Both the position numbers and the translations under genes were made by a program. Below, in pieces: positions 521-1,414 of a stretch of DNA of 64,000 bases; positions within the stretch are counted from its first letter, which is position 1, and the number at the start of each line of letters is the position of its first letter. The notes beneath the pieces were generated by a model. The model ran no database searches and was not told where the DNA came from. It saw only the letters and a list, made by a program, of their open reading frames with translations. The DNA comes from an uncultured Candidatus Saccharibacteria bacterium (lineage in GTDB: Bacteria > Patescibacteriota > Minisyncoccia > Phycocordibacterales > CAIZLB01). The stretch spans positions 3,190 to 67,189 of the forward strand of contig CAZSLF010000003.1 in the NCBI GenBank assembly GCA_964607805.1, given 5' to 3'.

Positions 521-551
521 AATTGGGTATCGCAAATTGCGATATCCAATT
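521..551 (+). repeat. 31-nt hairpin palindrome, copy A (AATTGG-N6-CA-AAT-TG-N6'-CCAATT)
   Basis: aattgggtatcgcaaattgcgatatccaatt. 14-bp stem and AAT loop, one G-T pair. Lies 14 nt beyond the ORF6N stop. Confidence 0.85.
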
Positions 552-564
552 TTAGAGTAGGTGA

Positions 565-1146
565 TTATTCAATCTTAACTGGATCTGGTGGTGTATCAGT
601 GTTTGAATCTGTATCAAAACCAATTTTTTCTTTTGGTTTGGCATCTTCTTTTACAAGAAATCGAATGATTCTGAAAATTTCATGAAAGTTTATGTTATTA
701 GTTCTTTCCATTTCTTCAACTTTTTCTCTTAGCTCTTTGTAGGCATCGATCATATCACGGAGTTTAGTGAATATTCGGATTATTTGTATATTTACTGCTA
801 TAGCTTTTTCACTACGCAGAACGCTTGATAACATGGCTATTCCTTGCTCGGTGAAGGCGAGAGGAGGAATTCTGAGGCTCATTTTAAGGTTAGAATTGGG
901 TATCACAAATTGTGATACCCAATTTCTGACTTCCTCAGAGTTGAGTTGGAACATAAAGTCTGGTGGAAATCGGGTCAGGTTTCTTCTGACCGATTGATTT
1001 AGTTGTGCTGTAGTAACACCATAAAGCATGGCCAGATCTCTGTCTAACATAACTTTCTTACCTCTAAAATAGAGGATTTTCTCTTTTACTACAGATATAT
1101 CTATATTTATTGCTTCAGGCAAAATGTTTTCATTTTTCATGTTCAT
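565..1146 (-). CDS. ORF6N (KilA-N-like) domain DNA-binding protein
   Basis: 193-aa ORF. ILYFRGKKVMLDRDLAMLYGVTTAQLNQSVRRNLTRFPPDFMFQLNSEE...PLAFTEQGIAMLSSVLRSEKAI is the typical ORF6N core. Confidence 0.85.
   Translation of the reverse strand: MNMKNENILPEAINIDISVVKEKILYFRGKKVMLDRDLAMLYGVTTAQLNQSVRRNLTRFPPDFMFQLNSEEVRNWVSQFVIPNSNLKMSLRIPPLAFTEQGIAMLSSVLRSEKAIAVNIQIIRIFTKLRDMIDAYKELREKVEEMERTNNINFHEIFRIIRFLVKEDAKPKEKIGFDTDSNTDTPPDPVKIE
894..924 (+). repeat. 31-nt hairpin palindrome, copy B, inside the ORF6N coding sequence
   Basis: aattgggtatcacaaattgtgatacccaatt, perfect 14-bp stem. On the minus strand it encodes NWVSQFVIPN. Confidence 0.85.
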
Positions 1147-1220
1147 AAAATATCAGATAGGACATTAAATTCTCATCAATTTTAGATAAAATTTTGGCTT
1201 GTAAAAGTTATAAAACGAAA

Positions 1221-1414
1221 AAATGGGTATGCCAAATTGGCATACCCAATTTAGGTCTATAAATAAGGTTTAATTGGATATCACAAATTGTGATATCCAA
1301 TTAAGGGCTAAAAATAACGATAAAATTGGAGGTCACAAATTGTGACCTCCAATTTCGGCCGAGCATATGAATAAATTAGATTAAATTGGAAGTGCCAAAT
1401 TGGTACTTCCAATC
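1221..1414 (+). repeat. tandem array of four hairpin palindromes (copies C-F) with homologous A-rich linkers
   Basis: Copies at 1221-1251, 1272-1302, 1324-1354 and 1384-1414, with a period of 50-60 nt. Linkers share CTAnAAATAA. The array ends about 24 nt before the ogt ATG at 1438 (15 nt before the upstream TTG at 1429). Confidence 0.85.

Follow-up and report, generated by a model that had tools for sequence, protein, structure and literature searches.

Binding sites that lie inside genes are known from several systems, including the ori iterons in gene O of phage lambda, parS in spo0J of B. subtilis, and lac O2 in lacZ. The HK022 protein Roi, a member of the Bro-N family and of the Bro network, reportedly binds a site inside its own gene. 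The homologous regions (hrs) of baculoviruses are bound by IE-1 and lie outside the bro coding sequences. Here we describe a 31-nucleotide (nt) palindrome that lies inside genes of the ORF6N family in many phyla and is repeated at the borders of these genes. It was noticed in a stretch of 64,000 nt from an uncultured Candidatus Saccharibacteria bacterium (contig CAZSLF010000003.1, positions 3,190 to 67,189 of the forward strand), referred to below as the window, where six copies bracket an ORF6N gene or are embedded in it. Comparison of these copies with those of other genomes revealed a gene-tethered, dyad-symmetric DNA element with the following features: (i) the apex of the palindrome is conserved, (ii) the lower stem is free in sequence but paired, and (iii) satellite copies at the gene borders turn over fast.

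The ORF6N element shares with the sites in gene O, spo0J, roi, and lacZ a dyad-symmetric site within a coding region and further copies nearby. It differs from them in that the palindrome occupies one codon position across phyla, its arms covary, and a covariation of amino acids is thereby forced; to our knowledge, such features have not been reported for any of those four sites. We have seen no earlier description of a palindrome that is conserved across phyla inside a coding sequence and dictates amino-acid covariation. The ORF6N papers found by search do not mention a palindrome, searches with the motif strings and for KilA-N together with "palindromic" returned nothing relevant, and no element of this design was found in Rfam or among solved structures, in agreement with a first reading of the DNA made from the letters alone (the sequence-only reading), which knew of none.

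That reading had also likened the hairpins to repetitive extragenic palindromic (REP) and integron attC elements. The likeness is one of resemblance: the ORF6N element looks like other gene-linked, protein-associated palindromic cis elements, but it fails the tests that define the attC family and the REP family with its REP-associated tyrosine transposases (RAYTs). As in REP sequences and the bacterial interspersed mosaic elements (BIMEs) that they form, palindromes of about 30-35 nt flank one specific gene, tend to occupy 3' intergenic spacers, vary in copy number and, in Flavobacterium, form mosaic arrays of palindrome types with conserved linkers. Unlike in REP/RAYT systems, the gene matches nothing but ORF6N in Pfam and is not an HUH/Y1 transposase, no transposase recurs near about 190 loci, the GTAG head is missing, the copies have not dispersed from the gene (neither in the other 62 kb of the window nor in 1.2 Mb of loci), and the master copy lies inside a coding sequence and constrains the protein. 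With attC, the element shares a conserved structure of varying inner sequence and a site directly after the stop codon of a compact gene. However, it is 31 nt long instead of 57-141 nt, its stems are perfect or nearly so with no extrahelical bases or bulges, it has no GTTRRRY core and no strand bias, and its ends are AATTGG, AACTTG, or TCTTTAAGG. Neither an IntI integrase nor a cassette array was found; the neighbours in the window are SWIB, Ogt, and methyltransferase-like genes in a locus that is syntenic in three genomes. Baculovirus hrs resemble the arrays by analogy only: they are tandem units with an imperfect palindrome of about 30 base pairs (bp), in Bro-rich genomes and with a link to genome rearrangement (PMC2830988), but in eukaryotic viruses. 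As to CRISPR arrays, the repeats here differ from each other, the linkers are interrelated and 20-29 nt long, unlike the unique spacers of about 30-40 nt of such arrays, and no cas gene lies in the immediate neighbourhood.

The window was scanned on both strands over its 64 kb for the pattern AATTGG-N6-CAAATTG-N6-CCAATT with at most two mismatches. Exactly six sites were obtained (copies A to F, Table 1), each on both strands and each with no more than one mismatch on the plus strand, whereas 0.01 are expected by chance (100 shuffles). Thus, all six palindromes of the sequence-only reading are real, and its inner-arm pairs, single outer-arm mismatches in C and F, and plus-strand G-T positions in A and F were correct as well. 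A looser core, TGG-N6-CAAATTG-N6-CCA, added only two two-mismatch matches in the 64 kb (about two are expected by chance), both with non-complementary inner arms, and the other 62 kb of the window hold nothing comparable. Folded as single-stranded DNA (ssDNA), every copy forms a stem of 13-16 bp with a 3-nt loop (-10.8 to -15.8 kcal/mol, z = -4.6 to -7.8). When a covariance model was trained only on coding copies taken from unrelated metagenomic genes, it picked up the six copies on the plus strand with 37-50 bits (E from 3.5e-11 to 1.8e-7) and matched nothing else in the window. The top score, 50.1 bits, belongs to copy E, in which a likeness to an ORF6N peptide core had been suspected and whose sequence is the family consensus.

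An extension of the pattern search beyond the window, as the sequence-only reading had proposed, yielded many further copies in many phyla, mostly in or near ORF6N genes. In a first sample, one genome per species was scanned with the exact pattern, which gave at least 120 loci, mostly from Bacteroidota, and 125 matches listed. Among these matches listed, other phyla are represented by Omnitrophota, Spirochaetota, Campylobacterota, Elusimicrobia, Lentisphaerae, Bdellovibrionota, Acidobacteriota, and candidate phyla; 88/125 lie inside an open reading frame (ORF) homologous to ORF6N and 21/125 within 250 nt of one. The six free inner positions are all complementary in 60 of the matches listed, and five of the six are in a further 44.

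Since the first sample had been chosen by a DNA pattern, a second one was drawn blind to the palindrome: 80 metagenomic loci were collected with the peptide [AVC]FTE[QHL]G[VI][ALT]M, encoded 57-66 nt downstream of the palindrome. Nearly every gene in this sample has a palindrome with arms of 12-14 bp at the same codons, and the best pairing reaches at least 12 of 15 possible pairs in 72/84 genes. The compensatory stem changes that had been noted among the six window copies were borne out in 81 sequences: 89.6% of the cells are paired, compared to 70.7% in shuffles, 12 of the 14 stem pairs change on both sides, and compensatory cells number 205 against 63 expected. Slid controls are paired at 45% or less, and the covariation score is 0.493 vs 0.170. 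Covarying base pairs are a trait shared with structured RNAs. The outer arms vary too, always on both sides; the types observed are AATTGG..CCAATT, encoding NW..SN, AACTTG..CAAGTT, encoding NL..SS, TCTTTAAGG..CCTTAAAGA, encoding SLR..TLK, CGTTTGAGA..TCTCAAACG, and TTTTTGAGG..CCTCAAAAA. The apex TC[A/G]CAA-W-TTG[T/C]GA, with arms of 12-14 bp around it, is conserved in coding, alternative-frame, and non-coding copies, so that the element has the dyad symmetry around a conserved recognition core that is expected of operators and iterons. A CRP-like site, TGTGA-N6-TCACA, was considered for this apex and rejected, the half-sites being in the opposite order and at N3 spacing.

The distribution around the genes was obtained from a scan of 1.2 Mb of loci for a CA...TG apex with at least 9 of 12 lower pairs. 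Among the 303 sites found, 203 are in ORF6N ORFs, 34 upstream and 48 downstream of them, and 18 in loci where no ORF6N gene was detected; of the 285 sites assigned to an ORF6N ORF, almost every one is contained in that ORF or lies no more than a few hundred nt from it. The palindrome is restricted to ORF6N genes. Three peaks are seen relative to the start of the protein profile: -90 to -30 (about 36 sites), +219 (180 sites), and +540 to +630 (about 19 sites). The central one is the internal copy, at the same codon position in 180 ORF6N genes; the non-coding copies upstream are concentrated some 50 nt ahead of the start codon, and the last peak corresponds to positions 2-17 nt after the stop codon. 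Therefore, the layout of the window, with A, B, and C-F, is the family layout. Grouped at 50% identity, the ORF6N proteins found by a search at E <= 1e-3 make up 28,537 clusters, with members in bacteria, integrative elements, and viral contigs. The palindrome-bearing subfamily is present in IMG/VR contigs; in GenBank phages only four weak metagenomic records were found, so this subfamily is rare in deposited phage genomes.

The palindrome is constrained at the nucleotide level, beyond what the protein requires. When each peptide was rewritten with the codon usage of its own gene, the recoded versions formed 6.3 stem pairs on average, whereas the real genes have 12.3 (for 87% of the genes, P < 0.01). 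Bases at third-codon positions follow those at second-codon positions of the opposite arm: Ser TCA is accompanied by Val GTG in 46 of the 47 genes having TCA, and the same kind of match links TCG (Ser) to GCG (Ala), TGC (Cys) to GGC (Gly), and TTC (Phe) to GGA (Gly). The covariation of Ser/Val, Ser/Ala, Cys/Gly, and Trp..Asn/Leu..Ser arises because the DNA arms must match. In one subfamily the reading frame of the core TCACAAATTGTGA is shifted by one base (giving ELVTNCDRF, ELITNCDKF, or GLITNCDKF), and its lower stem has a different sequence yet is still paired. The signature peptide N-[WL]-x-S-Q-[IF]-V-x-S-[NS] is the imprint of a DNA palindrome, with its synonymous sites fixed by pairing. 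The tie between the palindromes and a conserved ORF6N peptide, suspected from copies B and E, therefore goes deeper than had been guessed: the motif itself is a family-wide DNA palindrome.

The covariation alone would also suit a hairpin acting in the ORF6N transcript, by translational autoregulation, RNase processing, or stabilisation of the mRNA, and such a transcript would be expected to include all the preferred positions, namely those just ahead of the start, within the ORF, and 2-17 nt past the stop. We counted mismatches on the sense strand of about 250 copies. Coding copies have 31 G.T against 61 A.C, and flanking non-coding copies have 20 against 23 (7 vs 9 upstream, 13 vs 14 downstream); G.T is thus no commoner than A.C, contrary to the earlier idea that the G-T positions of the window are G.U pairs of a plus-strand RNA, and even on the antisense strand the excess is only about 2-fold, in coding copies. 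The asymmetric loop, described as having one orientation in the window, comes down to a central base that is A or T: CAAATTG and CAATTTG differ in this base alone, which sets Ile or Phe in coding copies, and either value occurs family-wide. AAT and ATT are found in 36 vs 19 flanking copies and 69 vs 83 coding copies, so any preference in orientation is weak. The three positions of the would-be loop are kept as symmetric CAAWTTG, in non-coding copies too. Neither strand specificity nor an oriented loop was found among these copies, and mismatches with no G.U excess or strand bias argue for a symmetric DNA-level element and not for RNA. An Rfam 15 scan of positions 1-3000 by E-value gave only sub-threshold chance matches (E >= 0.06, all well below gathering), and one of the whole window at gathering score found tRNAs only. 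We therefore regard a role as an RNA hairpin as very improbable. Rho-independent terminators, which are expected to have a G+C-rich stem followed by a U-run after a gene, do not fit either: the copies contain 23-37% G+C with no consistent T-run, the master copy is in the middle of an ORF, and four copies are in a presumed divergent promoter region.

The ORF6N protein of the window matches the Pfam ORF6N profile with 105.7 bits (cut-off 27.8, E = 1.5e-30, residues 23-109) and matches the PHROG anti-repressor family phrog_4792. Its AlphaFold2 (AF2) model, with a predicted local distance difference test (pLDDT) score of 71.6, has a helix-turn-helix (HTH)-like N-terminal domain and long C-terminal helices. 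In this model the peptide of copy B covers the last part of a helix (70-79) and runs into a loop modelled with low confidence (81-90), and the protein may therefore tolerate imposed residues there. No covariation between the putative recognition helix and the palindrome type was evident by eye. A PDB sequence search with the protein gave no significant match, and an NCBIfam search gave only a sub-threshold chance match; an exact look-up of the protein sequence found no record of it. The neighbours of the gene are SWIB, Ogt, and a gene resembling 3-demethylubiquinone methyltransferase; the order ogt-ORF6N-SWIB is kept in the window and in two other genomes, L201 and L204 (L numbers designate loci).

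Table 1. Features of the ORF6N locus in the window (positions are those of the window)
Feature	Position	Strand	Description
Copy A	521..551	no strand	Non-coding; ends 13 nt past the ORF6N stop; one G.T pair on the plus strand
ORF6N-domain gene	565..1146	-	193 amino acids; Pfam PF10543, PHROG phrog_4792, AF2 model
Copy B	894..924	no strand	Internal coding palindrome, 14/14 pairs; encodes N75-WVSQFVIP-N84 (NWVSQFVIPN) in frame
ORF6N 5' region, between copy C and ATG	1147..1220	-	Conserved with orthologue L201; contains TTTTATAACTTTTACAAG; putative promoter and 5' untranslated region
Copy C	1221..1251	no strand	Non-coding, upstream; nearest to the ORF6N start, 75 nt from the ATG at 1146
Tandem array C-F	1221..1414	no strand	Period 51-60 nt (Tandem Repeats Finder: 52); fills the divergent spacer towards ogt
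AT-rich linkers of array C-F	1252..1271, 1303..1323, 1355..1383
Copy D	1272..1302	no strand	Non-coding, upstream; perfect; pairing extends to 16 bp
Copy E	1324..1354	no strand	Non-coding, upstream; perfect; family consensus, NWRSQ[I/F]VTSN type
Copy F	1384..1414	no strand	Non-coding, upstream; two imperfections; ends 23 nt before the ogt ATG at 1438

The three syntenic orthologues differ in every copy. In the window, four upstream copies (AAGTAC and AGGTCA, ATATCA, GTATGC, of which the first has arms that are not fully complementary) accompany an internal GTATCA and a downstream ATATCG, again with incomplete complementarity. L201 (88% amino-acid identity) has two upstream copies (AAGTCA, GTATCG), an internal GTATGC, and no downstream copy; L204 (78% identity) has no upstream copy, an internal ATATCG, and a downstream AAGTCA. 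The inner arm of copy C, GTATGC, is thus that of the internal palindrome of L201, and a type that is internal in one genome can be found as a flanking type in another. The D-E linker of the window is identical to the linker between the only two upstream hairpins of L201; a linker of 22 nt that the two loci have in common is bordered by hairpins that differ by paired changes.

Some upstream copies lie close to promoter-like sequences. In at least nine Bacteroidota loci a TAnnTTT[G/A] box, which resembles a -7 box, begins 3-13 nt after the upstream hairpin, so that the hairpin would overlie the -33 region; the central TTTG of the palindrome was also tried as the -33 promoter element itself and rejected, as its fit is inconsistent between loci. 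In the window, TTTTATAACTTTTACAAG of the 5' region resembles the stretch TATATTTACAA that directly follows the upstream hairpin in L003 and L016. L003, L006, and L016 are orthologues lacking the internal motif; each keeps a perfect upstream hairpin, with compensatory differences between them, and in two of the three the hairpin directly follows the stop codon of an integrase gene. As an observation on integrase neighbours, a tyrosine integrase gene ends 0-12 nt before the hairpin in L224 (1441-3285), L003, and L016, the hairpin being about 45 nt upstream of the ORF6N start; in L224 this integrase-hairpin-ORF6N order belongs to a gut element for which an ArdA-like gene further downstream suggests an integrative nature.

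At one orthologous Flavobacterium locus, between the ORF6N stop and a convergent gene, the number of hairpins ranges from 0 to 8, of several types, with arrays in L048, L049, L067, L071, L079, L032, and L045, and none at the same site in L038, L018, and L075. Six species share a recurrent dyad in which an AATTGG-type hairpin is followed, after 11 nt, by one of the TCTTCAAGG type, with a centre spacing of 42 nt; the terminal hairpin is orthologous in six species and shows compensatory changes. In L067 a unit of three hairpins, about 150 nt long, is repeated twice. Around the genes in general, 53 of the 65 palindromes with 12 or more of the 14 pairs retain the CA...TG apex; among the remaining 12, three resemble decayed variants and most seem unrelated.

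We tentatively favour the explanation that the palindrome is the cognate site of the ORF6N DNA-binding protein, present in its own gene and repeated at its promoter, with symmetry and copies produced by template switching and unequal recombination. The primary copy, which is part of the coding sequence and marks the 3' end of the DNA-binding module, would be the recognition site, bound by a symmetric oligomer through the HTH-like domain and the long C-terminal helices. Copies over the -33 region of the gene's own promoter would allow autoregulation and might pair with the internal site about 265 bp away. Template switching at the quasi-palindrome would copy one arm onto the other and so keep the arms symmetric, and slippage or unequal recombination between copies would spawn, swap, and delete them. 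This explanation is suggested because the palindrome is present family-wide at the same codons, covaries, is constrained beyond the protein sequence, survives independently of frame, is symmetric as DNA, and is linked to ORF6N; because the apparent promoter placement recurs and upstream hairpins persist in orthologues without the internal motif; and because the protein is of a DNA-binding kind, to judge from its PHROG anti-repressor match, its HTH-like model, and its family. ORF6N belongs to the "Bro network", known for domain swapping (PMC10111431), and BRO proteins bind DNA (PMC2830988). Protein binding, regulation, and the copying mechanism are the parts that we infer. The proposal of the sequence-only reading that the hairpins may be operators for the ORF6N protein is thus the leading explanation, and it would fit the upstream copies better than the downstream arrays.

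Several observations weigh against the cognate-site explanation. Arrays of 2-8 hairpins occupy convergent 3'-3' spacers that have no promoter, and copies within a single array differ in lower stem and type. One protein would therefore read mainly the apex, which leaves the symmetry of the lower stem unexplained unless cruciforms or hairpins form or template switching alone maintains it. In the close syntenic orthologues, copy number is 4, 2, and 0 upstream and 1, 0, and 1 downstream, so individual copies are dispensable. The excess of flanking palindromes over background is approximately flat from 14 to about 10 pairs, which is compatible with neutral decay, and the non-coding copies, though untranslated, keep a 3-periodic codon-like profile (T4, A7, and T10 at about 90%), which points to descent from coding copies and not to independent selection. 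A Foldseek search with the AF2 model found no significant solved relative, the best hits being MarR/MerR-like regulators at E = 0.68.

Template switching makes imperfect inverted repeats perfect by copying a change of one arm onto the other. At such quasi-palindromes it is an established mutational mechanism (PMC7202029), and a single event could give apparently compensatory changes and near-perfect arms without pair-by-pair selection. The internal copy might accordingly be a frozen, self-perfecting quasi-palindrome whose arms are kept identical by template switching during replication, without structural selection, and the flanking copies might be its neutral or nearly neutral local spawn, comparable to gene-tethered REP/BIME arrays and at most incidental terminators or insulators. 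The turnover of copy number between orthologues, the flat excess, and the codon-like profile all favour this, as do the Flavobacterium arrays, which mix hairpin types, keep their linkers conserved, and lie in 3'-3' spacers devoid of a promoter. Flank copies also differ a little less from the internal copy of their own gene than from randomly chosen ones (3.98 differences compared to 4.60, P = 0.003). The palindrome unit is tandemly duplicated in frame inside six genes (L047, L052, L108, L177, L198, and L252), and L153 has a clean duplication of 311 bp between its internal and downstream copies. The model stays alive because downstream arrays, mixed types, and dispensable copies fit the cognate-site explanation poorly. 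However, template switching is a mutational mechanism and not an element: it leaves unexplained the one fixed position across many phyla and viral contigs, the survival through a change of reading frame, and the recurrent apparent placement over the -33 region. The retention of the apex near genes, the upstream hairpins that persist in orthologues lacking an internal copy, and the orthologous terminal hairpin of six Flavobacterium species with its compensatory changes speak against it as well. Overall, we consider it rather unlikely, and yet the alternative that comes next after the cognate site.

The bracketing of the ORF6N gene by hairpins, with a downstream copy 2-17 nt after the stop as in compact cassettes, raises the question of a mobile unit in which ssDNA hairpins serve as cassette ends or recombination sites, in the manner of attC, IS200/IS605, or REP-RAYT, for a recombinase acting in trans. 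The conservation of structure with a varying lower-stem sequence, the integrase-hairpin-ORF6N modules of L003, L016, and L224, and a pair of XRE and ImmA/IrrE genes between two near-identical palindromes in L098 would agree with it. On the other hand, clustering of the neighbours of the approximately 190 loci revealed no conserved recombinase or transposase partner, integrases being found in about 11 and most neighbours being housekeeping genes. The ogt-ORF6N-SWIB order is kept in three orthologues while hairpins come and go; strand specificity, extrahelical bases, and a target-site signature are missing; and no copies occur away from ORF6N genes. We judge this the least probable of the explanations considered here.

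Breaks in ORF6N genes concentrate at the palindrome. Among partial ORF6N fragments, 12 of about 46 starts and 14 of about 50 ends fall at profile positions 70-89, which is the palindrome; 3' fragments start exactly there in L134, L153, and L171, and 5' fragments end there in L010 and L039. In-frame duplications and frameshifts concentrate at the same place. In P0001, P0002, and P0004 the N-terminal halves have diverged and the C-terminal halves are almost the same, and Flavobacterium genes combine near-identical C-terminal halves with N-terminal halves that belong to three palindrome types. Compared with L201, the window shows a nucleotide identity of about 77% over the 5' half of the ORF6N gene (about 83% in ogt), about 94% over its 3' half, and mostly 97-100% in SWIB, and this step at the palindrome may be the boundary of a recombination tract. 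An in-frame inversion by recombination at the palindrome was considered and rejected, the antisense ORF through copy B being in a different frame.

These breaks could mean that the 31-bp patch is a crossover that lets diverged ORF6N genes swap their N- and C-terminal halves, the flanking hairpins being scars of such swaps or landing pads for them. The domain swapping known in Bro-network proteins (PMC10111431) is in keeping with this idea, as are the pile-up of fragment boundaries, the half-gene mosaics, and the rise in identity at the palindrome. Synonymous divergence, however, shows only an about 2-fold contrast across the window/L201 junction, and the identity step is thus in part due to a C-terminal half that is more strongly constrained. 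Moreover, evolvability is selected only weakly, hairpins that follow each other at 40-60 nt contain no half of a gene that could be donated, and the idea leaves unexplained why a palindrome should be used and not any conserved patch. Such a junction is therefore unlikely. In a combined form, which seems more doubtful still, the palindrome would be bound by the ORF6N protein and would at the same time encode a segment of that protein's surface, with the flanking hairpins as a reservoir and the internal copy as a junction for module swaps. Exchange between flank and coding copies, by template switching or short-patch conversion, would rewrite about 5-6 residues and the binding site in one event, and the 31-bp patch would be a universal junction for Bro-network DNA-binding modules, each travelling with its cognate site. 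This form fits the facts that internal and flanking types interchange, that non-coding copies stay "codable", and that fragment and mosaic boundaries fall at the palindrome.

Further features were observed at individual loci. L205 and L206 share an identical ORF6N gene with 244 nt upstream and differ beyond (breakpoint 2257), with RecG and a 126-amino-acid ORF in one sample and a ParB_N-methyltransferase and a 406-amino-acid ORF in the other, indicating a mobile-element insertion or rearrangement directly upstream of the gene. In L098 (749-2312) an XRE-type HTH gene (165 amino acids) and a gene for an ImmA/IrrE-like HEIGH metallopeptidase (212 amino acids) fill the interval between two ORF6N-type palindromes that are nearly the same in sequence, and an ORF6N gene adjoins; this two-gene module is either a palindrome-bounded cassette or a coincidence. 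L112 contains at least seven copies of an unrelated 31-nt palindrome (e.g. TTCATTTTTCGGGCTTTGCCCGAAAAATGAA) over 7 kb (521-7446), which looks like a separate REP-like family, and L069 contains two copies (6137-6167 and 7371-7401), 1.2 kb apart, of another perfect palindrome, CGTAAATCCAAAAT...ATTTTGGATTTACG. Elsewhere in the window, a low-complexity ORF of 289 amino acids, rich in Glu, Asn, and Ser and with no assigned family, is located at 2960-3829 on the minus strand and adjoins tRNA-Ser (4027-4114). An Rfam tRNA match of 48.7 bits, not called by ARAGORN, lies at 35898-35968 on the plus strand, about 250 nt upstream of tRNA-Met (36214-36290).

ORF6N is a very large family, and the palindrome changes how the conservation of its domain should be read. 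The element is a clean natural case of a symmetry constraint on nucleic acid that overrides protein coding across phyla, and it represents a family of palindromes that have remained with a single gene and have not dispersed. The 31-bp site, with its natural variants side by side in one locus, is the first concrete and testable handle on a possible target of ORF6N proteins.

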